Source of the DNA: a virus
Lineage: Duplodnaviria; Caudoviricetes
DNA: 64,000 nt
Reading direction: 5' to 3' (one strand)
IMG/VR virus record: IMGVR_UViG_3300027365_000007
Both the position numbers and the translations under genes were made by a program. The notes under the pieces are model-generated. The model ran no database searches. It saw only the letters and a program-made list of their open reading frames with translations, and was not told the DNA's origin. Positions 4,460 to 23,206 of the stretch are shown here, in pieces; within the stretch, counting starts at the first letter, position 1; each line of letters begins with the position of its first letter.

Positions 4460-5818
4460 TTATTGTTTCTCGCTCCGAGTTTCTACTAGACTAGGAGTTG
4501 TTTCTACTAAACTTAGTGTTATTTCTGTTAAACTAGGCGTTGTTTCTACTAGACTAGGCGTTGTTTCTGTTAAACTAGGCGTTGTTTCTGTTAAACTAGG
4601 TGTGGTCCAAGATAATGCACTGTGATTTATTAATGCACCTGTTAACAAGTTGAGATCATCTGGTATTTTAGTAATTAATGCGTCATTGGAACCTTGTCCT
4701 TCCGAATTTTGATTCCCAACTGCCACATAGCCCCCATCGTTGCTTTGGATAACTGAGTAATAATTATCACTATTTGAACCACCCAATCCTTTTTGACTAA
4801 CCACATTAAGATTGGCGTCGTATTTAGTAATTAATGCGTCGTAATTACCTTGTCCTTCCGAACTTTGATTCCCAACTGCTACATAGCCCCCATCGTTGCT
4901 TTGGATAACTGAGTAATAATTATCACTATTTGAACCACCCAATCCTTTTTGACTAACCACATTAAGATTGGCGTCGTATTTAACAATTAATGCGTCGTAA
5001 CTACCTTGTCCTTCTGATTGCTGATAACCAACAGCCACATATCCACCATCGTTGGTTTGGATAACTGAACGATAATAATCATTAGTTGTGCCGCCTAACC
5101 CTTTTTGACTAACTACGTTAAGATTGGCGTCGTATTTAACAATTAATGCGTCATTGTAACCTTGTCCTTCCGAACCTTGATACCCAACTGCTACATAGCC
5201 CCCATCATTGGTTTGTATAACTGAGTAATAATTATCACTATTTGAACCACCCAATCCTTTTTGACTAACCACATTAAGATTGGCGTCGTATTTAGTAATT
5301 AATGCGTCGTAATTACCTTGTCCTTCCGAACTTTGATTCCCAACTGCTACATAGCCCCCATCGTTGCTTTGGATAACTGAGTAATAATTATCACTATTTG
5401 AACCACCCAATCCTTTTTGACTAACCACATTAAGATTGGCGTCGTATTTAACAATTAATGCGTCGTAACTACCTTGTCCTTCTGATTGCTGATAACCAAC
5501 AGCCACATATCCACCATCGTTGGTTTGGATAACTGAACGATAATAATCATTAGTTGTGCCGCCTAACCCTTTTTGACTAACTACGTTAAGATTGGCGTCG
5601 TATTTAACAATTAATGCGTCGTAACTACCTTGCCCTTCCGAATTTTGATTCCCCACAGCCACATATCCACCATCGTTGGTTTGGATAACAGATCTATAAT
5701 AATCATTAGTTGTGCCGCCTAATGTGCTTACAATCCATGATTTAAATTCCACCACGGTCATACCTTTTGATAATTGAACACTGTTGATCCCAACATTATA
5801 AATTTTTATACCTGACAT
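4460..5818 (-). CDS. tandem-repeat beta-propeller protein (7 x 52 aa), probable virion or adhesin protein
   Basis: Seven near-identical GG..D...SVIQ.NDGGYVAVG...DALI.KYD units followed by TPSL(T/V)ET repeats. Confidence 0.75.
   Translation of the reverse strand: MSGIKIYNVGINSVQLSKGMTVVEFKSWIVSTLGGTTNDYYRSVIQTNDGGYVAVGNQNSEGQGSYDALIVKYDANLNVVSQKGLGGTTNDYYRSVIQTNDGGYVAVGYQQSEGQGSYDALIVKYDANLNVVSQKGLGGSNSDNYYSVIQSNDGGYVAVGNQSSEGQGNYDALITKYDANLNVVSQKGLGGSNSDNYYSVIQTNDGGYVAVGYQGSEGQGYNDALIVKYDANLNVVSQKGLGGTTNDYYRSVIQTNDGGYVAVGYQQSEGQGSYDALIVKYDANLNVVSQKGLGGSNSDNYYSVIQSNDGGYVAVGNQSSEGQGNYDALITKYDANLNVVSQKGLGGSNSDNYYSVIQSNDGGYVAVGNQNSEGQGSNDALITKIPDDLNLLTGALINHSALSWTTPSLTETTPSLTETTPSLVETTPSLTEITLSLVETTPSLVETRSEKQ
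4481..4606 (-). repeat. 21-bp coding tandem repeat, 6 copies
   Basis: TTPSL(T/V)E heptads. Confidence 0.9.
4670..5719 (-). repeat. 156-bp coding tandem repeat, about 7 copies
   Basis: Visible near-identical units; units 2-3 recur as units 5-6 (468-bp period). Confidence 0.95.
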
Positions 5819-12099: not shown

Positions 12100-12525
12100 A
12101 TGGAAACAATAACACAAAATTATACAAGTATCGTAGAAATAAGTGCAGGCGATGAAATTATTAAAAAATATATGGAATATCTCGAAAATTCGAATATCAA
12201 AACTTATATAACAGATGTACCCGTATGTGAAATTGATGGTCGTGTATATTGCGCCCAAGCACACATTAAGGATTTCACTAATGAAAGTATGACATCATCG
12301 TTTATGATGGGGGAGTATATATGTCCGTTTTCTTTCGAAACAAAGACACCGTATGTTGATGTTGTTGATGAGGTCTTAGAGGATGTGTTTAGATGTATAA
12401 AACGTGACTGTCTTAGAAGTAAATATAAAACGGTTGCTTTATACCGTTTCACTATTTCAGTACAGTATGATTTTGATAATGAGAAAATGAAATTAAACTG
12501 TCGTTATTCTTATGCAAATGAATGA
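12100..12525 (+). CDS. hypothetical protein, tandem paralogue of 12546..12971
   Basis: Shared FM.GE..P.SF...VDEVL..F..IK motif. Confidence 0.75.
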   Translation: METITQNYTSIVEISAGDEIIKKYMEYLENSNIKTYITDVPVCEIDGRVYCAQAHIKDFTNESMTSSFMMGEYICPFSFETKTPYVDVVDEVLEDVFRCIKRDCLRSKYKTVALYRFTISVQYDFDNEKMKLNCRYSYANE

Positions 12526-12545
12526 CGTAACAAATAGGGTATATT

Positions 12546-12971
12546 ATGAATACTAAAGTAAATGAATATGTGACAGAAGTATGTATCGATAGTGATGATG
12601 AATGCTTACATAAGTATTTCGATGAATTGAATGGATTGGGGTATAGTGTGACAGCCGTAAACTCCCCGGTTGTTAAACACAATAATACCTCATATACTAT
12701 ATCTAGTTATAAATATGAAATATGTCATCAATCTATTGTACAACAATTTATGGTTGGTGAAACCTTAGATCCTGACTCGTTTCAAAAAACAAACTATACT
12801 CAGGTTGCTGTTGATGAGGTTTTGTATGGTATCTTTTATGATATCAAAGAAGCTCTCAGAAACAATAATAAGAAGGAACTATTATTTTATAATACTACTA
12901 TGCGTATTGTCTATGACCATACGAAAAGCTGTTTAAAACTTGGCGTCTTATACAGAGTTCAATATGTGTGA
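12546..12971 (+). CDS. hypothetical protein, tandem paralogue of 12100..12525
   Basis: Shared FM.GE..P.SF...VDEVL..F..IK motif. Confidence 0.75.
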   Translation: MNTKVNEYVTEVCIDSDDECLHKYFDELNGLGYSVTAVNSPVVKHNNTSYTISSYKYEICHQSIVQQFMVGETLDPDSFQKTNYTQVAVDEVLYGIFYDIKEALRNNNKKELLFYNTTMRIVYDHTKSCLKLGVLYRVQYV

Positions 12972-13010
12972 ATATTAGACATGAAACATTATAACCATAG
13001 GATATAACGT

Positions 13011-13307
13011 ATGAATATTTTTAAGAAATTGTTTTCTAAGCTCAGTAGACAACGACAAGTACAACCATGTGACCATGTGTTTTTTCCATATTATGATGAA
13101 ACGGTGAATCGCAGATACCCAATAGGACAACGTTGTGCTTTATGTCATAAATTTAACTCTAATGAAGAACTTGGTATAAGTTTTGATCATATTGACATTG
13201 AAAAGAAACATAGACCTGAAAATGTCACCTGTGTTCACGGAAACATAAATGGAGTACCGGCATGTCCGCCCGGTGAGAACTGCTATTCCTCTAAGAAGCG
13301 TAAATAA
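13011..13307 (+). CDS. Cys-rich hypothetical protein
   Basis: 98 aa; CDH, CxxC and further Cys. Confidence 0.65.
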   Translation: MNIFKKLFSKLSRQRQVQPCDHVFFPYYDETVNRRYPIGQRCALCHKFNSNEELGISFDHIDIEKKHRPENVTCVHGNINGVPACPPGENCYSSKKRK

Positions 13308-13427
13308 GATGTGACCGTTGATAAGTATGAAACATCGAAAGCAATTTAGAACAAAAGACAGAGTGAGGAAAAAATTGCATCCTAGATAAAAATCATATAT
13401 GATGTTTTAGAAAACCAAAAAAAGAGC

Positions 13428-13456
13428 TTGACAGGATGTATAAATAGCTTTACACT
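13428..13456 (+). promoter_or_regulatory. sigma70-type promoter of tRNA operon 1
   Basis: TTGACA 13428-13433, 17-nt spacer, TACACT 13451-13456. Confidence 0.85.
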
Positions 13457-13554
13457 ATGTTCAAGATAAAAAATTACAGAGTTTTAGAGACAATGTTGTC
13501 TCTTCTATAAATAACATTAACTTAGAAAGAAAAGAATTTAAGAGAGAAACCAAA

Positions 13555-13674
13555 ATGACTATTTTCGCACAGATGCACAAACAAGAACAGTTTAAGGGAA
13601 GTGAATTCCCCCGTGCAATTGTATCGTCAGATAGCATCTGTGGTTGGTCACAAGATGACTATGAGGGTTTCTAG
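13555..13674 (+). CDS. leader peptide 1 (39 aa, MTIFAQMHKQEQFKGSEFPRAIVSSDSICGWSQDDYEGF)
   Basis: ATG 13555 after AGAGAG, TAG 13672-13674; frame and stop position kept in both copies. Confidence 0.75.
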   Translation: MTIFAQMHKQEQFKGSEFPRAIVSSDSICGWSQDDYEGF

Positions 13675-13713
13675 CTTATGATTAAGTAAACAACACATAA
13701 GCAAAGTAAGATA

Positions 13714-13749
13714 AAGAAACCCTTCTATTGAGAAGGGTTTCTTAGTTTT
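13714..13749 (+). terminator. attenuator terminator 1
   Basis: AAGAAACCCTTCT-ATTG-AGAAGGGTTTCTT 13-bp stem then AGTTTT; the 5' arm can alternatively pair with AGGGTTTCT 13664-13672. Confidence 0.85.
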
Positions 13750-13764
13750 AGATAAAAAGAATTT

Positions 13765-13840
13765 GCGGGCTTAGCTCAGTTGGTAGAGCGTCGTCCTTCC
13801 AAGTCGATGGTCATCGGTTCGAATCCGATAGTCCGCTCCA
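13765..13840 (+). tRNA. tRNA-Gly(TCC)
   Basis: Cloverleaf, loop CT-TCC-AA, encoded CCA. Confidence 0.9.
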
Positions 13841-13864
13841 ATTTAAAATTTGTGGAAGGTAAGT

Positions 13865-14134
13865 ATGGATGTCAAAGTAAATCCTAAGATTGCTTCATTT
13901 TTAAAATTCGTAATGTGTGGATACATTAAAGTTGGCGATGAAATATGGTCAACAGGGACACGAGGTGAAAAGAAGCTAACGAAGTCACAAATTAAGTCAA
14001 TCGAAAAGACTGGTATTGTAAGTTTTGATTGGCAAGAGGATTGTATTAAGTTACAATCAACGGTAGATTTGGTACGTGTTTCGCCTATTGGCAAAGTACC
14101 ATATAAGACGTTTAACGTAGAATATAACGAATAA
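13865..14134 (+). CDS. hypothetical protein, paralogue of 19847..20128
   Basis: VNP..ASFL.F.M.GY.KVG motif; GGAAGG RBS. Confidence 0.75.
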   Translation: MDVKVNPKIASFLKFVMCGYIKVGDEIWSTGTRGEKKLTKSQIKSIEKTGIVSFDWQEDCIKLQSTVDLVRVSPIGKVPYKTFNVEYNE

Positions 14135-14140
14135 GTTTTA

Positions 14141-14230
14141 GGAGGGGTGGCAGAGCGGCTGAATGCAGCGGTCTTGAAAACCGCCGAGCCCTTCGGGGCT
14201 CCGTGGGTTCAAATCCCACCCCCTCCGCCA
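14141..14230 (+). tRNA. tRNA-Ser(TGA)
   Basis: Long variable arm, GCGGT-CTTGAAA-ACCGC, CCA. Confidence 0.95.
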
Positions 14231-14238
14231 AAATTTAA

Positions 14239-14309
14239 GCCTTGGGTTCTGGGAACAGGTTGGGCTCCAAACCTGACCGTGCAGGGTTCGATTCCTTGAC
14301 AAGGTGCCA
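14239..14309 (+). tRNA. non-canonical tRNA-Trp(CCA)
   Basis: 71 nt; 3-nt D-loop, 7-bp anticodon stem, loop CT-CCA-AA, G discriminator, CCA. Confidence 0.75.
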
Positions 14310-14317
14310 TATAAAAT

Positions 14318-14391
14318 GGCGGGTTGGCCGAGTGGCTAGGCGGTGGACTGCAAATCCACCTACGGGGGTTCGATTCCCTCACTCGTCTCCA
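14318..14391 (+). tRNA. tRNA-Cys(GCA)
   Basis: GTGGA-CTGCAAA-TCCAC, U discriminator, CCA. Confidence 0.9.
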
Positions 14392-14424
14392 AACAAAAAA
14401 GTTTGAGAAAATAGAAAAAAGTAC

Positions 14425-14453
14425 TTGACAGGAAGCATAAATAAGATTACACT
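14425..14453 (+). promoter_or_regulatory. sigma70-type promoter of tRNA operon 2
   Basis: TTGACA 14425-14430, 17-nt spacer, TACACT 14448-14453. Confidence 0.85.
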
Positions 14454-14552
14454 TAACTCAAGTATTAAAAAATGCAGAGTTTTAGAGGCAATGTTGTCTC
14501 TTCTATAAATAACATTAACTTAGAAAGAGAAGAATTTAAGAGAGAAACCAAA

Positions 14553-14675
14553 ATGACTATTTTCGCACAGATGCACAAACAAGAACAGTTTAAGGGAAGT
14601 GAATTCCCCCGTGCAATTGTATCTTTTGATCGTGAGATCATGGATAGTGCGAAAGGGGAGATTAAGGGTTTCTAG
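14553..14675 (+). CDS. leader peptide 2 (40 aa, MTIFAQMHKQEQFKGSEFPRAIVSFDREIMDSAKGEIKGF)
   Basis: ATG 14553, TAG 14673-14675; 3' part of track ORF 14472..14675. Confidence 0.75.
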   Translation: MTIFAQMHKQEQFKGSEFPRAIVSFDREIMDSAKGEIKGF

Positions 14676-14716
14676 CTTATGATTAAGTAAACGACACATA
14701 AGCAAAGTAGATAAAG

Positions 14717-14749
14717 AAACCCTTCCACTGAGAAGGGTTTTTTAGTTTT
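14717..14749 (+). terminator. attenuator terminator 2
   Basis: AAACCCTTC-CACTGA-GAAGGGTTT plus U tract; the 5' arm can alternatively pair with AAGGGTTTCT 14664-14673. Confidence 0.85.
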
Positions 14750-14763
14750 AGATAAAAGATTTT

Positions 14764-14840
14764 GGAACGGTAGCTCAGTTGGTAGTAGCAGTGGTGTGAA
14801 GTACCACGTGTCGATGGTTCGAATCCATCCCGTTCTACCA
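14764..14840 (+). tRNA. tRNA-Phe(GAA), unusual anticodon loop
   Basis: GTGGT-GTGAAGT-ACCAC, CCA. Confidence 0.8.
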
Positions 14841-14883
14841 AATTAGGCTTTACGCCATGTTCTTTAAAAATTATTTATATTTA

Positions 14884-14960
14884 GCGGCATTAGTTCAGTT
14901 GGTTAGAACGCTACACTGTCACTGTAGAGGTCGCGGGTTCGAGTCCCGCATGTCGCGCCA
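14884..14960 (+). tRNA. tRNA-Asp(GTC)
   Basis: CTACA-CTGTCAC-TGTAG, CCA. Confidence 0.95.
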
Positions 14961-15075
14961 AATTCAAAACCAAATTTGACAAGGGTTTGGGTAATAAGTT
15001 AGAGTGATATAACCATCACTTACCTTGTCGAAATTTATTTCTATAATTGATAAAAAAGTAAATCAATTATAACGA

Positions 15076-15167
15076 AGTGAAGTGGGTGAGCGGTCAAAAC
15101 CAGCACACTGCTAATGTGCCGACCCGCTTTTGCGGGTCCGAGGGTTCGAATCCCTCCTTCACTGCCA
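15076..15167 (+). tRNA. tRNA-Ser(GCT)
   Basis: GCACA-CTGCTAA-TGTGC, long variable arm, CCA. Confidence 0.9.
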
Positions 15168-15173
15168 GTTTCA

Positions 15174-15250
15174 AGTGGCTTAGCTCAGTTGGCTAGAGCG
15201 GTGCCCTTACAAGGCATAGGTCGATGGTTTGATCCCATCCGCACCGACCA
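15174..15250 (+). tRNA. tRNA-Val(TAC), probably pseudo
   Basis: Anticodon arm intact; acceptor stem largely unpaired; T-loop TTTGATC. Confidence 0.6.
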
Positions 15251-15259
15251 TTTTTTTCT

Positions 15260-15335
15260 GTCCCGTTCGTCTAGTTGGTCAGGACACTGGCCTTTCACGT
15301 CAGTAACAGGGGTTCGAGCCCCCTACGGGACACCA
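15260..15335 (+). tRNA. tRNA-Glu(TTC)
   Basis: CTGGC-CTTTCAC-GTCAG, CCA. Confidence 0.9.
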
Positions 15336-15358
15336 AATTTTGATAGTAACGACTATCT

Positions 15359-15435
15359 AGGAATGTAGCTCAGTTGGTGAGAGCGTTCGGCTGATAACCG
15401 AAAGGACGCAAGTTCGAGTCTTGCCATTCCTACCA
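15359..15435 (+). tRNA. tRNA-Ile(GAT)
   Basis: TTCGG-CTGATAA-CCGAA, CCA. Confidence 0.95.
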
Positions 15436-15470
15436 AATTTTTCACTACCTGATGTATTCCGGGTAGTCTC

Positions 15471-15546
15471 TGGGGTGAGGTGTAATGGTTGCACATCGGC
15501 CTTTTAAGCCGAAAGGAGTAGAGTTCGATTCTCACCACCCCAACCA
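15471..15546 (+). tRNA. tRNA-Lys(TTT)
   Basis: TCGGC-CTTTTAA-GCCGA, CCA; T-stem has a bulge. Confidence 0.85.
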
Positions 15547-15554
15547 TTTTATTT

Positions 15555-15630
15555 GTCTCGTTCGTCTAGTTGGTCAGGACACTAGGCTTTCACCCTAGAA
15601 ATGTTGAGTTCGAGCCCCTACGGGACGCCA
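15555..15630 (+). tRNA. tRNA-Glu(TTC) second copy, degenerate T-arm
   Basis: CTAGG-CTTTCAC-CCTAG; T-stem mispaired. Confidence 0.6.
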
Positions 15631-15653
15631 AATTTTCATAGATGTAATTGTCA

Positions 15654-15682
15654 TTGAAGAATATCGTGCAATATATTATACT
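15654..15682 (+). promoter_or_regulatory. possible internal sigma70 promoter
   Basis: TTGAAG, 17-nt spacer, TATACT. Confidence 0.45.
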
Positions 15683-15713
15683 GTAGTTAATGAAAAGAAA
15701 AGGACGGTGTTAA

Positions 15714-16232
15714 ATGAATTATTTACAAAACCATTGTTATTGTACAGAATCGAACTGGGATAGATCATCTTACAGTTGTAGAAATATGGTTTGGTTCCAT
15801 TCCTATATGAATGAAGACAAAACCGATTGGGCGAACCTTGTTGATGAAAAGAGTGAAAGTTTCATTGACTATAATAGAATGAAAGTCCATAATGAAGTTT
15901 CTGAAGAAATGAATCTTCCAGTAATTACAGATCCTGAGAGGTTTCGAAAGGATGTGGTAAATTTAAAACCACACGTTCTTCGTTGGTTGGAAGATAACGT
16001 TGATGATCGCGATGATGAAGAATGTATTAAAGGCTGGTGTATCGGCTCTATTAAGTATAGATCAAGTAACGATACTATCATGACAATATTCTTTCATCGC
16101 GAAACAGATGCTATGAAATTTATCAAGGAATTTAGTGTAAATAAAAAACCTGTTTTTTACCATAATTATTTTGATGATGTTAAAAAGATTTTAAATCTGG
16201 AAACAGGTAAATATAGGAGTTTCGGAGTGTAG
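15714..16232 (+). CDS. hypothetical protein
   Basis: 172 aa; 3' end overlaps the pseudo-tRNA-Ala. Confidence 0.7.
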   Translation: MNYLQNHCYCTESNWDRSSYSCRNMVWFHSYMNEDKTDWANLVDEKSESFIDYNRMKVHNEVSEEMNLPVITDPERFRKDVVNLKPHVLRWLEDNVDDRDDEECIKGWCIGSIKYRSSNDTIMTIFFHRETDAMKFIKEFSVNKKPVFYHNYFDDVKKILNLETGKYRSFGV

Positions 16233-16298
16233 CGCAGTTGGGAGAGCGATGCCCTTGCAAGGCATAGGTCGTCGGTTAGATCCCGTCCTTCTCCACCA
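16224..16298 (+). tRNA. tRNA-Ala(TGC), probably pseudo
   Basis: ATGCC-CTTGCAA-GGCAT; acceptor out of register; T-loop TTAGATC. Confidence 0.55.
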
Positions 16299-16305
16299 TT
16301 TTTGT

Positions 16306-16383
16306 TGGGATGTCGCCAAGTTGGTCTAAGGCATTCGGTTTTGATCCGAATATTCGGGGGTTCGAATCCCACCACTCCAACCA
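16306..16383 (+). tRNA. tRNA-Gln(TTG)
   Basis: TTCGG-TTTTGAT-CCGAA, CCA; single mismatches in acceptor and T stems. Confidence 0.75.
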
Positions 16384-16410
16384 AATTTTGCTTTAAGAGT
16401 AAATAAAGAT

Positions 16411-18972
16411 ATGTCCAGAAAACAAAAACTTATTGATAACCTATCTTATTTAGAAAACGATGTATATAATAAGAGTGAAGTTACAAGCCGTGATTATAAG
16501 CCCTACTATCAATATAAGATTGGGTTCCTTGACGAACAATTTTTTCCGGTGTACGGCTATCTGAATTTTGGTTATTTACCTCATTCATCAAAGTATTTCT
16601 TATTCAAGGATACCAAAGGTAGGGAAGTTATTCTTTACAAGGGATCGCAAGGCAAACCCGAAACAGACAGTTTCTTTAGAGCTTATCGATACGATAAGAA
16701 CGGTGATTTCATTTATGACAACTCACCACTTAGCACACCATTCATGTCATCCAATCAGAGAATTAATTACATTGATTGTTGTAGCACAAACTACATCGTC
16801 GCTCAGATCAAAACATTGGGTGATCCTAATACATACAACTATTATCTTATTCGAACTAACTCAAGTTACGATACATCTGTATGGCAGAATGTTTTGGACA
16901 TAACAAGTTCCATGGGGTTCAGTGCATCGGTTGCAAATAATATTACTATCGATGAAAAAGAACAAAAGCTTTATGTTATTGCGTCAGAAAATGCGAGTGG
17001 TGGGTTAACAAGTTTTGGTACTATAAAATTAAAAATATATAATCTTAATAATGGAAACTATATCAACGAATATTCTATATTTGATATGCCTACTGACTTA
17101 AATTATAGTGCCTATTCTACATCAACTAAAGCTCTAAGCTACGGTGGTCTTCGTACAGTATTTAATTATAATACTGGTGATCTATTAGTAAGCCTTAAAA
17201 CCATCATTTATTATGATATAAACGGTGGCAGAACTTATATTACAAAAGATATTAATCTTTCCTTAAACCTTAGTGATACCTTAAGGCAAACTGGCACAGG
17301 AACCTATAGTTATTATATACCTATTAACTCCACTAACTATGACTTCTTTAATAACGGCATTGGTATTGGCTCTTGGAATAGTGGTGGTAGACATGACGCT
17401 TATTCTTTCAATGAATATGATAACTCTATCTATTACATTGATAGATCAACGTGGATAGATACGGGATTCAACCTAAGACAACGTGATTTCAGTAGTCCAC
17501 TAACAAGCTCTGGATACTTCTTAGATTCTTTACCAGAAATTTATTCTACACAAAGACATAACGTACCCGATTCATCACCTTGGTCAAAAACCTGTTATAA
17601 AAAATGTATAATAACTGACGACTACTATATTGGCTATGGAAATAGCACAAAATATGGTGTTACTTATTTTATATCGAAATACAATATAAATGGACAAGAT
17701 ATAGAATTCATAGCAGGTCAGTGGAGAATATTAGATGATATAAACCTGAACAGTAATATTAATCTAAAAGAACTGGATAGATGGTTTATAACAAAGAATG
17801 GAACAACAGTAGAGTACTACATTTATGACAATTCATTTAATGTGTTTAAAATAGATATAGATAGTAACTTTAATATAATATACACTGATATGGGATTACA
17901 GTTACCTACTCCTAGCTCTTCATCTTATGGTAGGCAGAATCAATGGGCAATAGACTTTTCTAACAATAAGGTATATTGGGTTGTGTTAGATTATACCGAT
18001 TCTCATAAAGCAAAAATTATATGGACAAATAATAATGGATCATCATGGGACTTAGGACCGGTTCTTAACAGTACTCAAGCTAGTGGTTCAGCTTCACAGT
18101 TTAGTGATGGAAATGCTAGAGCATATGGGTCTAACGGCTCTAATATGTTTATGGAGAATAATTTAGTCTATGTAAACTTTACATATCTATCTGTCGGTGG
18201 AGCATATGGAACGCCATACGAACAATACGATAGTGCTACTAATACGCTGACTACATTCTCTAATTCAACAAACCCTTATAACGGTGGTAACTCAATTGGG
18301 TACAATAGTCGAATGAGTTATTATATAAGTGATACAAACATTGGTTATTATTCTATGCGCTTTTATAGTCAATCGGTGCTTTCTAATTTATTGAATGGGA
18401 ATTCGTTGAGTACACTGTATACTAATGTATCCACTTCATCTGGATTGGGCGCAACTCTTTTAAACTTTCCAGTATTCCTAGATGGTTATTATTATCAAAC
18501 AGCTACTACTGATGTGGCATTGGAAGCGAACGCAGATAACTTTGTTTATCTTGAGACAGTAGATAACACTACACTAAACGCTTATTCTAGTGTAACTGAT
18601 TTAAACAACACGTCTAATCGTATTAAGATTGCAAAAATAACAACTGATTCGGCAAACCCGATATCTCAAGAATTATATGATTTGAGTTTCAATGATACAA
18701 CAGCGCCGAAGTATATATTTAAAAAAATAAAACTAGAAAATGTTTCTCTTTCTCAAGGACAATCAATCACCGTACTATCAAGTGACTATGGGTTAAATGA
18801 TTATGATAGGTATCGAGTTATGGACTTCAGAAGTGATGGAACTGGTGACTATTTTTTAAATAGCAATGTAGAGTACAGTTTGAGTTTTGATAAAAGTCAG
18901 ATAGTCATTACATCACAAGAGAGTGGAACACAAACATATACATTTTTAATACACGTATATTTGGGGATATAA
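16411..18972 (+). CDS. large beta-rich virion protein (tail fibre / receptor-binding candidate)
   Basis: 853 aa, S/T/N/Y-rich; N-terminal YLENDVYNKSEV motif and C-terminal domain shared with the next gene. Confidence 0.55.
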   Translation: MSRKQKLIDNLSYLENDVYNKSEVTSRDYKPYYQYKIGFLDEQFFPVYGYLNFGYLPHSSKYFLFKDTKGREVILYKGSQGKPETDSFFRAYRYDKNGDFIYDNSPLSTPFMSSNQRINYIDCCSTNYIVAQIKTLGDPNTYNYYLIRTNSSYDTSVWQNVLDITSSMGFSASVANNITIDEKEQKLYVIASENASGGLTSFGTIKLKIYNLNNGNYINEYSIFDMPTDLNYSAYSTSTKALSYGGLRTVFNYNTGDLLVSLKTIIYYDINGGRTYITKDINLSLNLSDTLRQTGTGTYSYYIPINSTNYDFFNNGIGIGSWNSGGRHDAYSFNEYDNSIYYIDRSTWIDTGFNLRQRDFSSPLTSSGYFLDSLPEIYSTQRHNVPDSSPWSKTCYKKCIITDDYYIGYGNSTKYGVTYFISKYNINGQDIEFIAGQWRILDDINLNSNINLKELDRWFITKNGTTVEYYIYDNSFNVFKIDIDSNFNIIYTDMGLQLPTPSSSSYGRQNQWAIDFSNNKVYWVVLDYTDSHKAKIIWTNNNGSSWDLGPVLNSTQASGSASQFSDGNARAYGSNGSNMFMENNLVYVNFTYLSVGGAYGTPYEQYDSATNTLTTFSNSTNPYNGGNSIGYNSRMSYYISDTNIGYYSMRFYSQSVLSNLLNGNSLSTLYTNVSTSSGLGATLLNFPVFLDGYYYQTATTDVALEANADNFVYLETVDNTTLNAYSSVTDLNNTSNRIKIAKITTDSANPISQELYDLSFNDTTAPKYIFKKIKLENVSLSQGQSITVLSSDYGLNDYDRYRVMDFRSDGTGDYFLNSNVEYSLSFDKSQIVITSQESGTQTYTFLIHVYLGI

Positions 18973-18976
18973 TAAA

Positions 18977-19666
18977 ATGCCAAGCATGTATAAACGATTA
19001 ACCGATTACTTAGAATACTTAGAGAATAATGTATACAGTCGTGATGAGGTTGATTCTCGTGACTTCCTAAACTTTGAGCCTAAAGTAGGAGTCGGAAACA
19101 ATAATATCGTAAGCTACACAACATCAGGTCTAACATTTACAGTAACAGAAACTCGAATATTTTTAGGTGGGTACTCACACATTGTTAGTAGTCTTCCATA
19201 TACGTTACCTGCTAATGCAGTGTCTTACATTTATTTGGAAAAAGGATCAGGGCGTGATGATATAACTATTTCTCACACAACCACCGAGCTTCAAAACTCT
19301 TTTAATAAAATTTATATAGCTAAAGTTGAAACGAATGTATCCAGTATTACTAATGTTGATGCATATTCAGTAACACCATTTGGTTCCTTTGCGGACTATG
19401 AGAAAATGTCTTCGTTCACTACAACGGTTACTGTAGCATCCGGTTCGTCTTATGCTATAACCCTAAGTCAGTTGAGTAATATTAATACATTAAATAAAAC
19501 GTTCTTAGACTTTACGATTCAATATAGCGTGTTTGATTCTCAATCTAGTACATATCGATATCCGGTTGTAGGAATAGAGCAGCGAATAAATTCTACTGCG
19601 GATACCTTGACAATAACAAACAATACCGGCTCTTCTGTAGATATTGTAATAAGTATTCATGGATAA
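18977..19666 (+). CDS. virion or tail-fibre-associated protein, paralogue of the termini of 16411..18972
   Basis: YLENNVYSRDEVDSRD and FLGGY...YIYLE...KIYIAKV motifs. Confidence 0.55.
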   Translation: MPSMYKRLTDYLEYLENNVYSRDEVDSRDFLNFEPKVGVGNNNIVSYTTSGLTFTVTETRIFLGGYSHIVSSLPYTLPANAVSYIYLEKGSGRDDITISHTTTELQNSFNKIYIAKVETNVSSITNVDAYSVTPFGSFADYEKMSSFTTTVTVASGSSYAITLSQLSNINTLNKTFLDFTIQYSVFDSQSSTYRYPVVGIEQRINSTADTLTITNNTGSSVDIVISIHG

Positions 19667-19686
19667 AAAATTTGTGGAGATAACCA

Positions 19687-19932
19687 ATGAAGATATATGA
19701 TTTATTAGAAGCTCCGGTTCCCAAGCCCCTTGATAATGACATTGAAGATGCTATCGAACATGCTGATACTGAGGGTAATGGATGGGATAGAACAGACTTT
19801 CATCTTGAAAAGATGCTGGACCTGATCCTGAATGAGGTTTACGAATATGCAAGAAGTACAACAAATCAATGTAAATCCAACTATGGCTTCGTTTTTGAGA
19901 TTTATTATGCTAGGTTATCACAAGGTTGGTAA
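19687..19932 (+). CDS. small protein with MKIYDLLE N-terminus
   Basis: GGAG RBS; 3' end overlaps the next gene. Confidence 0.55.
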   Translation: MKIYDLLEAPVPKPLDNDIEDAIEHADTEGNGWDRTDFHLEKMLDLILNEVYEYARSTTNQCKSNYGFVFEIYYARLSQGW

Positions 19933-20128
19933 CACAGTATGGACTACTCGACAGGACGGTAGTAAAGTACTTACAAAGACTCAATTGACATCTCTAGAGA
20001 ATAAGGGACTTATTGTTATTGGCTGGTATCCAGACAAGGCAGTGTTAGAGTCTCATGTAAATATAGTTGCTGTCGAACCTATGGGATTGAAAGTGCCATA
20101 TAAAAAATTTAAAGTAACATACTATTAG
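19847..20128 (+). CDS. hypothetical protein, paralogue of 13865..14134
   Basis: GAGG RBS before ATG 19847; shared motif. Confidence 0.7.
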   Translation: MQEVQQINVNPTMASFLRFIMLGYHKVGNTVWTTRQDGSKVLTKTQLTSLENKGLIVIGWYPDKAVLESHVNIVAVEPMGLKVPYKKFKVTYY

Positions 20129-20423
20129 ATAAAACAAATTATTATAATAATTTTTTAAGGTATATGATAGCTTAGGTTTGAGCAAAAATGTATCTAGTTA
20201 AGAGGACTATATTATGCCAAGTAAAAAAAGAATTAAACAGTTTTTTCGATGAAGTACTTATTGATGAGATACTTCAGTCCCCAGAAAACGATAATGTGAA
20301 AAAATAAGCTATACACTGGCTGTTAGTGTTGCTAGTTTTATTATTTATGGTTATACTTTAGAATATATACTGGACATATGTGCTATTCCAATTCGATTCC
20401 TGCCATATGTGATTTTTATTTTA

Positions 20424-20487
20424 GCCCAAGTAACCGTGTCTGGCTACGAACCAGTTAAGCGTAGTTGGAGTTGAAAATGTAGGTTCG
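20424..20487 (+). pseudogene. truncated non-canonical tRNA-Arg(ACG)-like gene
   Basis: CTGG-CTACGAA-CCAG arm; sequence breaks off at GTAGGTTCG immediately before the HNH gene. Confidence 0.45.
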
Positions 20488-20526
20488 TAAGCATAAATAC
20501 AGGTATATGATCGAGAGAATATCTGT

Positions 20527-21216
20527 ATGAATTATCAAAAGCACTATGATCTATTAATTGATCGGGCAAGAAATAGAACTCTTGAAGGGTATAAGGAAAT
20601 GCATCATGTGACTCCAAGATGTATGGGTGGAACCGATGATCTTTATAACATAGTTGAATTAACATCAGAAGAACATTATGTAGCTCACCAACTGTTAGTT
20701 AAAATGTACCCCGATCATGATGGTTTAAAATGGGCAGCAATCCAAATGCTAGGTCACCCTAATGGGAATAGGAATAATAACCAGACTTATGGTTGGTTAA
20801 AAAAACATTATCATAATGTGTGTAAGAAAAGAAAAGGTAAAAAGAATGGCTCTTATGGTAAAAGTTGGTTCCATAACCCATTGACTGAAGAAGTCATTAA
20901 GTGTAGTACAAATGATGTCCCTGATGGATTTATCAAAGGGCGCAGCATTAGTGAGTTAAGAACGTGCCCTAATTGTGCTATAGACTTCAGAGTTGCAAAG
21001 TCTAAAAAACAGACATATTGCACCAATAGATGTAAGAGTACAAATAATATAGTTAGTAAAGAAACTAGAAATAAAATAGCAGAATCCCAGAGACGATATT
21101 ATCAAAAAATAAAACACCCTCATCTTGGAACCATCTTAATCACCAATGGAGATATCGTTAAAAGGATTAATAACGATGCCCCTATTCCAGAAGGATGGTG
21201 GAAAGGTAGAATTTAA
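20527..21216 (+). CDS. HNH homing endonuclease
   Basis: Y..HY..LI..A..R...EMHHVTPRCMGGTDD..N.V.LT.EEHYVAH.LL; C-terminal PEGWWKGR-type motifs. Confidence 0.9.
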   Translation: MNYQKHYDLLIDRARNRTLEGYKEMHHVTPRCMGGTDDLYNIVELTSEEHYVAHQLLVKMYPDHDGLKWAAIQMLGHPNGNRNNNQTYGWLKKHYHNVCKKRKGKKNGSYGKSWFHNPLTEEVIKCSTNDVPDGFIKGRSISELRTCPNCAIDFRVAKSKKQTYCTNRCKSTNNIVSKETRNKIAESQRRYYQKIKHPHLGTILITNGDIVKRINNDAPIPEGWWKGRI

Positions 21217-21220
21217 CATC

Positions 21221-21297
21221 AGGAAGTTAGCTCAGTTGGCTAGAGCATTCGACCGATAATCGAAGGGTCGCTGGTTCGAGTCCAGCACTTCCTACCA
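21221..21297 (+). tRNA. tRNA-Ile(GAT) second copy with C33
   Basis: TTCGA-CCGATAA-TCGAA, CCA. Confidence 0.85.
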
Positions 21298-21302
21298 TTT
21301 TC

Positions 21303-21379
21303 TGGGGCTTAGCTCAGTCTGGTAGAGCATCTGCTTTGGGAGCAGAGGGTCGTAGGTTCAATTCCTGCATCCCCGACCA
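21303..21379 (+). tRNA. tRNA-Pro(TGG)
   Basis: TCTGC-TTTGGGA-GCAGA, CCA. Confidence 0.9.
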
Positions 21380-21384
21380 ATTTC

Positions 21385-21462
21385 AAGGGGGTCGTTTCCT
21401 TTAAGGAAGCACCGTATGATCCGAATCGGTTCCTGTGTAGAGTACAGGGGTTCCCTTTTTTT
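21385..21462 (+). ncRNA. tRNA-like cloverleaf RNA without CCA
   Basis: 7-bp closing stem and three hairpins, located between two tRNA genes. Confidence 0.5.
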
Positions 21463-21479
21463 ATTTCAATTAGTTTTGT

Positions 21480-21556
21480 TGGGGTATCGCCAAGTGGACT
21501 AAGGCATCGGGTTTTGATCCCGATATTCGAAGGTTCGAATCCTTCTGCCCCTACCA
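21480..21556 (+). tRNA. tRNA-Gln(TTG) second copy
   Basis: TCGGG-TTTTGAT-CCCGA, CCA. Confidence 0.9.
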
Positions 21557-22063
21557 TTATCTTTTAACTCTTTTTACTGAAAGTATCCTAGAAGTGTTAG
21601 GGTTTATTATTACTTCCTTTTCATATTTTATCGTGGAAATAACATCAGGATCGTCCAAGAATGCAATAAAAGCTAGAGGCACAAATATAACATCGCTAGT
21701 GTTTATTTTGAAAGTGATTAAATAACCAACATCACCTAAGACCTTAGAAAAATTTTCAGCCACGGTCTTAGAATATGAACATGAACTGTACGATATACCT
21801 TTAGTGTTAGTTTTTTCTTTTTCCCGTGACGAAATTTCTTTTTTTATGGTGATCCATTCTTCTTCATCGTAGTCATCATTCCAAAAGTATACTCCACGGT
21901 AAACCGTATCGGGTATTTTCTCACGATATTCATCATTTACTTTCTTGAAGTATGAACTATTCTCTATATAGTTCAGTAAGTCATGAAACTTATTTTTATT
22001 ACTGATGAATTCTTTAAATAGTTGTTGAAATTTCGTGTCAGATTCTATATCATGTATATTCAT
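21557..22063 (-). CDS. ADP-ribosyltransferase, R-S-E (VIP2/Alt-like) type
   Basis: VYRG, YSSCS...A..F and EKEVII motifs. Confidence 0.7.
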   Translation of the reverse strand: MNIHDIESDTKFQQLFKEFISNKNKFHDLLNYIENSSYFKKVNDEYREKIPDTVYRGVYFWNDDYDEEEWITIKKEISSREKEKTNTKGISYSSCSYSKTVAENFSKVLGDVGYLITFKINTSDVIFVPLAFIAFLDDPDVISTIKYEKEVIINPNTSRILSVKRVKR

Positions 22064-22090
22064 AGCTAATAAACCTTTTCTTATATTTAT

Positions 22091-22164
22091 TGAGGATTAG
22101 TGTCAGTGGCCTAACACACAGCGCTCATAACGCTGTACCACCAGTTCGAATCTGGTATCCTCGA
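22091..22164 (+). tRNA. tRNA with CAT anticodon (elongator Met or Ile2), CCA not encoded
   Basis: CAGCG-CTCATAA-CGCTG; no GGG/CCC initiator signature. Confidence 0.75.
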
Positions 22165-22188
22165 CTCATACCAATGGAGATAATAGAT

Positions 22189-22407
22189 ATGAAGCATCTT
22201 ACTGTAGGAAAATTGAAAGAGTTGATTGAAGACGTTGATGATGATACTATTGTCGCTGGCATTGGACATTTCGGTGAAACTCTTAATATCGAGCCAGTTG
22301 GTCTCCAAGGTGCTGTACTTAACGATAGTAAAACACGTTGGCAAGATGGTAAGAAAGTTACTGTCTTCGTACTTAATTGTGAAGATATGGGTCCAGACCC
22401 AGAATAA
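22189..22407 (+). CDS. hypothetical protein
   Basis: GGAG RBS; MKHLTVGKLKELIE start. Confidence 0.7.
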   Translation: MKHLTVGKLKELIEDVDDDTIVAGIGHFGETLNIEPVGLQGAVLNDSKTRWQDGKKVTVFVLNCEDMGPDPE

Positions 22408-22414
22408 GGAATAT

Positions 22415-22786
22415 ATGATAATAGAACTAGACTCAATATATCAACTTTTAGAAGAAGGACGTTTTACAACCCAAGTACCGACGATTTACATAGGTGGTGG
22501 TTCTTCTAATATGGTTAATATTCCAGACGCATTTTTTATGAATGTTAAATTTGGACAGGATCGTATTGCTTTTGGAAAAGAGAAGTCTTATCTTGCTCTT
22601 AGTAGGACAGGATTTAACGTTTATAAAGATGAACTGTATAATGCTTATGCACGTGGTATACAAGCTCATGGTCTTAGACCAAACCAACCATCAACCAAAA
22701 AAGAGTTTGTTGATCAGATGAATCAGTGGTATGATAATCTTGAAAATAAATCGCTAACCGAAGCGAAGAAAAGAAAACTTATTTAG
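22415..22786 (+). CDS. hypothetical protein
   Basis: AAGGA RBS before ATG 22415 within track ORF 22226..22786. Confidence 0.7.
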   Translation: MIIELDSIYQLLEEGRFTTQVPTIYIGGGSSNMVNIPDAFFMNVKFGQDRIAFGKEKSYLALSRTGFNVYKDELYNAYARGIQAHGLRPNQPSTKKEFVDQMNQWYDNLENKSLTEAKKRKLI

Positions 22787-22861
22787 GACGTATAACTCAG
22801 TTAGTAAAGTACTACCCTGTCACGGTAGAACTCGTGAGTTCGAGCCCAGCCGGGGGAGCCA
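22786..22861 (+). pseudogene. pseudo-tRNA-Asp(GTC)
   Basis: CTACC-CTGTCAC-GGTAG arm and CCA; acceptor and T stems decayed. Confidence 0.6.
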
Positions 22862-22879
22862 AATTAAGAGAGAAATGCT

Positions 22880-23206
22880 ATGAAAACAACTATTCAGGAA
22901 CCATCAGTAACAGAAACGAAAGTGACTGTATATGGCATTTATGATAATGCCTGTGGTGTTTTAGTTGATCGTAAAGATCAGGAGTGTGGAGACTTTAGAT
23001 ATGACAGTAAAGTTCTTACAGACCAAGAATACATGGTTGTTAATAGTATTTCCACTCACGATGATAAGAAAGCGTTGTATGAAGATATTGAAGACGCTAA
23101 ACACGTAAAATGGTTACTGGAAAAAGAAAACTCAGATAATGCATATACAATAGTATCATTTACTAAGTGTACCTATGAGTTTTATAAGTTTGACGCGGTA
23201 GAATAG
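22880..23206 (+). CDS. hypothetical protein
   Basis: 108 aa. Confidence 0.7.
   Translation: MKTTIQEPSVTETKVTVYGIYDNACGVLVDRKDQECGDFRYDSKVLTDQEYMVVNSISTHDDKKALYEDIEDAKHVKWLLEKENSDNAYTIVSFTKCTYEFYKFDAVE

Follow-up and report, generated by a model that had tools for sequence, protein, structure and literature searches.

Two leader cassettes at the head of tRNA blocks

We analysed a window of 64,000 nucleotides (nt) of IMGVR_UViG_3300027365_000007, a record assigned to the Caudoviricetes. The window is part of a 222,591-nt metagenomic contig of an uncultured phage, is AT-rich (34.5% G+C), and encodes proteins that are nearly all orphans. Between positions 13428 and 14763 it contains two cassettes of about 335-340 nt, each heading a block of tRNA genes, which we consider here as candidate transcription attenuators. 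The order of elements is the same in both: a promoter, a 5' untranslated region (UTR) of about 92 nt, an open reading frame (ORF) of 39 or 40 codons, a 7-base-pair (bp) hairpin that we call hairpin H, an intrinsic terminator, and the first tRNA gene. The RNA from the inferred transcription start to the terminator (leader 1 or leader 2) is predicted to be about 290 nt long.

An initial annotation, made from the sequence letters, had described two near-identical leaders, each before a tRNA run, and its positions were correct wherever we checked them. The TTGACA-17-TACACT promoters are present at 13428-13456 and 14425-14453, and the ORFs of 39 and 40 codons, both ending GGT-TTC-TAG, at 13555-13674 and 14553-14675. 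The intrinsic terminators placed just before the first tRNA are likewise there, as hairpins with U-rich tails 20-21 nt away. The two blocks begin with tRNA-Gly at 13765 and tRNA-Phe at 14764, and the terminator hairpin lies 20-21 nt earlier; because this gap is too short for a promoter, tRNA-Gly and tRNA-Phe can be reached by read-through only. The elements of the two cassettes, all on the + strand, are as follows.

13428-13456, +: promoter P1, TTGACA-17-TACACT, with an inferred transcription start near 13463
13486-13503, +: 5' UTR hairpin of leader 1, 6 bp, present in the folds, five pairs with compensatory changes
13505-13521, +: invariant 17-nt UTR block CTATAAATAACATTAAC, the same in all five sequences while its flanks vary
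13545-13551, +: segment 1 of leader 1, AGAAACC, 4-10 nt upstream of the ATG; partner strand of segment 2, overlapping the ribosome landing site
13555-13674, +: leader ORF 1, 39 codons plus TAG, ending GGT TTC TAG
13624-13665, +: variable cassette of leader 1, codons 24-37 (S S D S I C G W S Q D D Y E), from the alignment of the copies
13664-13672, +: segment 2 of leader 1, AGGGTTTCT, the last codons and the first stop base; complement of segment 3
13674-13702, +: hairpin H of leader 1, GCTTATG / CATAAGC, beginning at the G of the stop codon and nested in the antiterminator
13714-13750, +: terminator T1 (segments 3 and 4; hairpin 13714-13743), 13-bp stem, -18.9 kcal/mol, U-rich tail
13715-13723, +: segment 3 of leader 1, AGAAACCCT, the terminator 5' arm
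13765-14391, +: block 1, with tRNA-Gly(UCC), an ORF of 89-94 residues (13850/13865-14134), tRNA-Ser(UGA), a tRNA-like element (14238-14306), and tRNA-Cys(GCA)
14425-14453, +: promoter P2, TTGACA-17-TACACT
14484-14501, +: 5' UTR hairpin of leader 2, from predicted folds
14503-14519, +: invariant UTR block CTATAAATAACATTAAC of leader 2
14543-14549, +: segment 1 of leader 2, AGAAACC, from folds and complementarity
14553-14675, +: leader ORF 2, 40 codons plus TAG, ending GGT TTC TAG
14622-14666, +: variable cassette of leader 2, codons 24-38, of the ancestral type common to the related leaders L002 and L003 (see below)
14664-14673, +: segment 2 of leader 2, AAGGGTTTCT, complement of segment 3
14675-14703, +: hairpin H of leader 2, from predicted folds
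14714-14750, +: terminator T2 (hairpin 14714-14743), 12-bp stem, -14.9 kcal/mol, U6 tract
14715-14724, +: segment 3 of leader 2, AGAAACCCTT, the terminator 5' arm
14764-16383, +: block 2, with tRNA-Phe, Asp, Ser(GCU), a weak Val(UAC)-like tRNA, Glu, Ile, Lys, Glu, a 172-residue ORF, Ala(UGC), and Gln

The two copies are 92% identical over 375 alignment columns, and the identity is distributed as a mosaic. Identity is about 99% in the UTR and codons 1-23, falls to about 50% in codons 24-37/38, where there is also a 3-nt in-frame indel, and returns to about 97% in the last two codons, the 3' UTR, and the terminator. This pattern rules out point mutation as the source of the difference and indicates that a variable cassette of 41-44 nt was exchanged or driven apart while its flanks were kept.

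The leader promoters are, as judged from their sequence, of the sigma-70 type. The extended promoter motif CTTGACAG...TASWCT occurs at two sites in the window, one in each leader, where 0.01 would be expected. The invariant UTR block CTATAAATAACATTAAC contains TATAAATA, which we take to be the T4 late-promoter consensus. A T4-style late promoter in this block is without support from the count of the 9-mer CTATAAATA in the window (5 occurrences against 2.1 expected, with 5 reached in 8 of 100 shuffles).

No comparable leader precedes the other tRNA runs in the window (21221-21556 and 29605). Within the first of these, between tRNA-Pro and tRNA-Gln, there is a terminator-like hairpin followed by a T7 tract (21428-21452), with no leader-type ORF near it.

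Homologous leaders in related phages

INPHARED yielded no cultured relative of the phage, and the leaders match nothing there; only the tRNAs do. Three homologous leaders were found in other records. The first, L001, is leader 1 of a near-identical strain and carries six clustered substitutions at codons 19-22: the substitutions fall within 13 nt (L001:8110-8130 against window positions 13610-13622) and change FPRAIV to FSCGRV, while the rest of the roughly 470 nt is identical. Codons 19-22 differ in the other two homologues as well, and on these alignments they are a second hypervariable patch within the leader ORF.

The more distant homologues are L002, found by a metagenome scan with the stop/hairpin H junction, and L003, found by a scan of viral contigs with the terminator and located in a record of 217,982 nt (G001). 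Each of these phages has one homologous leader directly before a tRNA array, and in G001 it is the sole copy. The array is Gly, Phe, Ala-like, Ile, Lys, Asp, Glu in L002, and Gly, Phe, Ala-like, Ile, Lys, Glu, Ser, Pro, Gln, Met, Asp, Asn in G001. Both leaders keep CTTGACAG and the -10 element of the promoter. Nothing varies in the promoter, in segments 1-4, or in the stem of hairpin H, while loops (including that of hairpin H), UTR flanks, and ORF codons change. The conservation of frame, stop position, and pairing in related phages, on which the initial annotation had made its proposal depend, holds in L002 and in L003/G001.

The comparison also suggests how the second copy may have come about. 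In L002 and G001 tRNA-Gly and tRNA-Phe are adjacent, whereas in the window they stand about 920 nt apart, separated by a small ORF, tRNA-Ser(UGA), the tRNA-like element, tRNA-Cys, and the second leader. The ancestral variable cassette survives in leader 2; leader 1 occupies the ancestral position but carries a new one. The second copy would have arisen with an insertion of about 920 nt that brought tRNA-Ser(UGA), the tRNA-like element, and tRNA-Cys, and in leader 1, which heads the new block, the 14-codon cassette would have given way to another with many Ser-UCR, Cys, Gly, and Trp codons.

Further pattern scans of viral contigs gave no leader beyond L003, and a protein-based search for the locus (the ORF embedded in a tRNA array) gave no match. 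Fragments of relatives occur in freshwater and subsurface samples (runs X1-X4), but metagenomic DNA contigs contained no further type of leader; the low-depth, divergent pieces from run X1 show L003-type changes. A search of RNA sequencing runs gave no match to the phage. A tRNA pair in G001 (Asn/Leu) has neither a terminator nor a comparable cassette upstream.

Codon content of the leader ORFs

The leader ORFs are largely composed of codons that the downstream tRNAs read. In leader 2, array-2 tRNAs (Phe, Asp, Ser-GCU, Val-like, Glu, Ile, Lys, Ala, Gln) read 28 of the 39 codons that follow the ATG, whereas such codons make up 0.43 of the phage's own gene codons (binomial p = 2.6e-4, with array boundaries that were our choice here and in the other leaders). 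A match of 28 is reached in just one of 12,284 windows of 39 codons from the phage's own ORFs and in none of 200,000 random sets of nine anticodons; the nine most-used codon boxes cover 19.

For leader 1, tRNAs of arrays 1 and 2 together read 29 of 38 codons, a value that none of 12,356 own-gene windows attains. Its variable cassette was also compared with the tRNAs of block 1 (Gly-UCC, Ser-UGA, and Cys-GCA): four of 14 codons (TCG, TCA, TGT, TCA) are read by this set, through Ser-UGA and Cys, against a base rate of 0.055 (p = 0.006; empirically 0.95%). The leader in G001, which as a homologue is not independent of the other two, has 21 of 40 codons matching the next seven tRNAs (base rate 0.32, p = 0.006, empirically 0.97%).

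The tRNA-like element between tRNA-Ser(UGA) and tRNA-Cys (14238-14306) folds as a cloverleaf whose anticodon loop is CUCCAAA (CCA = Trp); its stems are weak, and the acceptor stem has a G·A mismatch. Rfam gives it 17 bits (E = 0.2) to the tRNA-Sec model, and ARAGORN makes no call. From its sequence it could be a degenerate or unusual tRNA-Trp, and if it is a working tRNA-Trp, TGG would be a fifth match in the leader 1 cassette.

Maintenance of the leader ORF

Start codon, frame, and stop position of the leader ORF are identical in four lineages, in which it spans 39, 40, 41, and 41 codons. Both ORF indels are in frame, and frame and stop are kept through about 55 substitutions. When all six frames are compared, it is the sole ORF common to all leaders; an antisense ORF of 58 residues was rejected, as it occurs only in the window copies and L001 and is absent from L002 and L003. 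On the same ground we rejected a type I toxin-antitoxin or an overlapping antisense small-protein gene, for which a conserved hydrophobic ORF on the opposite strand would be expected.

At the protein level the ORF drifts. The ratio of nonsynonymous to synonymous substitution rates (dN/dS) is 0.47-1.19, and the changes are distributed over the three codon positions at about 7:4:8. The neutral chance of the frame staying open in all three comparisons is about 0.11, in-frame indels not counted. A frame preserved while the encoded residues change is what one would expect of a regulatory leader ORF, of which the translation matters and the product does not. We have moderate, though not strong, confidence that the predicted leader ORF is maintained in this capacity.

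An alternative is a conventional small early gene that has a promoter and a terminator of its own and encodes a functional protein of 39-41 residues; constitutive leaky read-through would then supply the tRNAs, and the complementarities within the leader would serve mRNA stability or translational autoregulation. Promoter, ORF, and terminator do make a complete gene unit, gene callers predicted the ORF in three records, and both ends of the peptide are conserved (N-terminal MTI.A.MHK, C-terminal EIKGF). A terminal hairpin would, moreover, protect the leader mRNA after RNase P has cut the 5' end of the tRNA. We nevertheless regard a protein-coding role of this kind as unlikely. Both the dN/dS values and the near-uniform changes over codon positions oppose a constrained protein, and the conserved residues fall in stretches where the RNA is invariant down to its synonymous sites. 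Homologues are lacking outside this lineage: among 5.8 billion proteins, a peptide search matched only the two ORFs of the window and L001. Left unexplained would be the 9-10-nt copy of the terminator 3' arm at the end of the ORF, as well as the extreme codon match to the adjacent tRNA set.

A predicted terminator/antiterminator switch

The initial annotation had pointed out that the last codons of each ORF are complementary to the 5' arm of the terminator. The match is exact: segment 2 is the complement of segment 3 over 9 nt in leader 1 and 10 nt in leader 2, lengths that dinucleotide shuffles of the upstream leader reach in 0.38% (p = 0.0038) and 0.02% (p = 0.0002) of cases, respectively. 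Segment 1, AGAAACC, is a 7-nt copy of segment 3 and pairs with the end of the ORF in minimum free energy (MFE), centroid, and consensus folds. The resulting 1:2 helix (AGAAACC:GGUUUCU, 7 bp) is invariant and, before segment 4 is made, is preferred in leader 2 only. A protector of this kind had been sought in GAATTCCC (13603-13610), but that stretch forms the 3' side of a small, conserved local hairpin (GGGAA/UUCCC) in the folds; we rejected it in favour of AGAAACC at 13545-13551/14543-14549, before the start codon.

The competing structures are close in predicted energy. The isolated antiterminator, in which the 2:3 helix is stacked on hairpin H, has -16.2 to -18.6 kcal/mol, and the isolated terminator, with a stem of 12-13 bp, has -13.2 to -18.9 kcal/mol; before segment 4 exists, folds with forced 1:2 and forced 2:3 pairing differ by at most 2.8 kcal/mol. 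In all members the stop codon sits exactly at the junction of segment 2 and hairpin H. When the ribosome is modelled as a 28-nt footprint mask on the nascent RNA, the 2:3 helix is part of the MFE structure for A-site codons up to 33-35 (in leader 2, for codons 30-34 only) and becomes impossible from about six codons before the stop.

Elsewhere in the leader, the 5' UTR hairpin is supported by five compensatory pairs across leaders 1 and 2, L002, and L003, and a small hairpin within the variable cassette is likewise kept through compensatory changes. In the predicted fold of leader 1 the variable cassette pairs with codons 5-8. The hairpin H loop and the linker also carry conserved AAGUAA motifs. 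Compared with shuffled sequences, the two leaders fold with z scores of -4.7 and -4.85.

Rfam, searched at E <= 1 over 12500-23000, returned tRNAs only, the leaders themselves giving 26 bits to AbsR25 and 25 bits to BTnc231, far below the gathering scores. A T-box riboswitch (RF00230) was therefore rejected, with no hit to it or to any other cis-regulatory family at that threshold in that region.

A switch of this kind could be set by something other than a ribosome, such as an RNA-binding protein, T-box-like binding of a tRNA, or the speed of the polymerase, with the ORF incidental. The unusually structured leader (z about -4.8) agrees with such a view, as does the weak Shine-Dalgarno sequence, and the covarying 5' hairpin, the 17-nt UTR block, and the AAGUAA motifs have no role in a ribosome-based model. 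We find control without translation quite improbable all the same, given that the frame and stop were kept through two in-frame indels and about 55 substitutions, that the stop lies exactly at the segment 2/hairpin H junction in every member, that the codon-tRNA match would have no role, and that no T-box or cis-regulatory family was matched in Rfam.

A proposed attenuator gating entry into the tRNA genes

Taken together, the evidence inclines us, by a modest measure, to the view that each cassette is a ribosome-mediated (leader-peptide) transcription attenuator that gates the entry of host RNA polymerase into a block of phage tRNA genes. In the proposed mechanism, a ribosome that keeps pace with the polymerase would cover the last six or so codons, or the stop, while segments 3 and 4 are being made. 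It would thereby bury segment 2 and melt hairpin H, so that the terminator forms and a leader RNA of about 290 nt is released. Where decoding is slow, segment 2 would instead be free to pair with segment 3, stacked on hairpin H; no terminator would form and the polymerase would proceed into the tRNA genes. As the ORF consists largely of codons of the downstream tRNAs, a shortage of these would raise tRNA synthesis and an abundance would shut it off. The shortage could stem from poor supply by the host or from depletion during infection, the net effect being control of supply by negative feedback.

Several observations weigh against this attenuator. As a full-length RNA, the leader always favours the terminator state (about -74 against -65 kcal/mol, a margin of 5-10), so that the model rests on kinetics. 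The helices 1:2, 2:3, and 3:4 never vary and hence offer no covariation for or against it; with segments 1-4 and the stem of hairpin H invariant, the pairing is backed by conservation and statistics. Of the covariation that the initial annotation had proposed to test, that in the 5' hairpin and the cassette hairpin is seen, while that in the switch helices is not. Conservation of the cassette hairpin further means that RNA structure alone could explain part of the cassette sequence. The Shine-Dalgarno sequence is weak (AGAGAG at -15 to -10; GGAG, GAGG, or AGGA is found in most of the window's genes), and segment 1 is able to occlude the ribosome landing site.

The codon evidence also has its weak points. 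The match of leader 1 to its own three tRNAs is marginal (5 of 38 codons over the whole ORF, p = 0.06), 4-9% of random sets of three tRNAs equal the match of its cassette, and the contrast between leaders 1 and 2 gives a Fisher p of 0.17. Without Ala and Gln, which lie beyond the 172-residue ORF, leader 2 retains about 22 of 39 matches by a hand count, with a rough p of the order of 0.01. All conclusions on conservation draw on four distinct homologues, which are related by descent. Finally, matched codons are scattered over a long ORF, with no run at a single stall site.

Of the trp/his-type attenuation that had been proposed for these leaders, the predicted segment logic stands, in the light of conservation, upkeep of the ORF, complementarity, near-isoenergetic folds, the footprint model, and the codon match, a feature that the initial annotation had not used; a defined stall site in the middle of the leader is not supported. 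With matches distributed along the full length of the ORF, the leader fits better as a sensor of how fast the ORF is decoded overall. We tentatively suggest, with less assurance than for the attenuator itself, that phages may adjust the supply of their own tRNAs through feedback, the switch being informed of decoding speed by a multivalent leader ORF. Such a sensor would be modular, having been duplicated and its 14-codon cassette (with Ser-UCR, Cys, Gly, and Trp codons) swapped when tRNA-Ser(UGA), tRNA-Cys, and the Trp-like tRNA were acquired.

It seems very improbable to us that the terminated transcript of about 290 nt is instead a trans-acting or dual-function small RNA with the variable cassette as its target-recognition region and its position near tRNAs incidental: a conserved scaffold with a swapped 41-44-nt cassette does resemble exchangeable seeds, a stable 5' hairpin and a terminator are typical of small-RNA ends, and attenuator-derived small RNAs such as rnTrpL are known (PMC6614838), yet three phages share the location immediately ahead of a tRNA array, the upkeep of the ORF and the codon match would be left unexplained, and a small-RNA role could coexist with attenuation without replacing it.

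Other elements in and near the tRNA region

Pfam has no match for nine of the ten proteins neighbouring the leaders. The small ORF of block 1 (13865-14134), which is part of the insertion of about 920 nt separating tRNA-Gly and tRNA-Phe relative to two related phages, has a paralog within the tRNA region at 19832-20128; the two proteins (89 and 98 residues) are 49% identical and have no Pfam match. In block 2, the 115-nt spacer between tRNA-Asp and tRNA-Ser(GCU) (14961-15075) contains a promoter-like TTGACA-18-TAGAGT inside a long inverted repeat (GACAAGG...CCTTGTC), with a second inverted repeat after it. To go by its motifs, this spacer could serve array 2 as an internal promoter or act as a structured element in processing. 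The weak tRNA at 15174-15253, with anticodon UAC (Val), is related to the tRNA-Ala at 16224 (repeat family D4); it has a partial match of 43 bits to the Rfam tRNA model and a poor acceptor stem, and ARAGORN calls it at a lowered threshold only.

Farther downstream, a 229-residue ORF (20527-21216) ends 5 nt before tRNA-Ile. It has an HNH-like motif recognizable by eye (HHVTPRCMGG...N...EH) and no Pfam match at E <= 0.01, and may be a homing-endonuclease-like gene in the tRNA region. Outside this region, a 452-residue ORF on the - strand (4460-5818) consists mostly of six tandem repeats of 156 nt (78-97% identical), with a run of 21-nt repeats at its 3' end. The 426-residue product of the ORF at 24500-25780 matches Peptidase_M32 (carboxypeptidase Taq; E = 1e-35), a gene that to our knowledge seems unusual for a phage.

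Comparison with known leader systems

The leaders trpL, hisL, leuL, thrL, ilvL, and pheL are leader-peptide transcription attenuators of enterobacterial amino-acid operons; pheL is discussed as such in PMC3082878. The phage cassettes share with trpL/hisL-type leaders a short promoter-proximal ORF, a terminator before the regulated genes, a predicted antiterminator formed from RNA at the end of the ORF that excludes the terminator, and an upstream segment that may sequester the antiterminator strand. In both, the ORF has an excess of codons whose decoding serves as a readout of the regulated product. The predicted energy hierarchy also resembles that of trp, with the 1:2 and 2:3 pairings about equal and both weaker than the full terminator state. 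In contrast to those leaders, the phage cassettes would gate tRNAs and one or two small ORFs, not biosynthetic enzymes or synthetases; their ORF is long (39-41 codons) and multivalent, covering about nine tRNA species with no tandem run of a single codon; and the stop overlaps segment 2, so that arrival of the ribosome at the end of the ORF, rather than its release between segments 1 and 2, would bring about termination. There is no sequence homology between the two groups.

Control of the pheST/thrS type and T-box riboswitches (RF00230) resemble the proposed phage system in that a choice between terminator and antiterminator tunes the translation apparatus to the supply of charged tRNA. T-box leaders differ in binding uncharged tRNA directly and needing no ORF, and the output of the phage locus is the tRNA itself. 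Closer in one respect are the polycysteine leaderless short ORFs of mycobacteria, whose codon content senses charged tRNA and controls the downstream operon; according to that report (bioRxiv 10.1101/834739), these are sensors of a single amino acid and act on protein-coding genes of a bacterial chromosome.

As in the tRNA clusters of T4 and T5, the tRNAs of this phage are interspersed with small ORFs and putative homing-endonuclease-like genes. For clusters of the T4/T5 type we found no report of control by a codon-matched leader ORF and attenuator. More generally, literature searches turned up no publication on a codon-matched leader ORF or attenuator that controls the transcription of tRNA genes, which agrees with the initial annotation, to which no described translation-coupled attenuator of phage tRNA genes was known.

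Implications for phage tRNA genes

Why phages carry tRNA genes, and how these are expressed and controlled, has been debated for decades. The main ideas are compensation for codon usage and escape from host defences that target or cleave tRNAs (PMC10264068). If the attenuator proposed here is correct, phage tRNAs would be subject to demand-driven control, set by the decoding of the phage's own codons, and leader-peptide attenuation would extend from amino-acid and synthetase genes to tRNA genes. The leader would pack into about 290 nt a sensor for the supply of about nine tRNA species together, and a feedback sensor of this kind, if true, would also sense the depletion of tRNAs by host defences.

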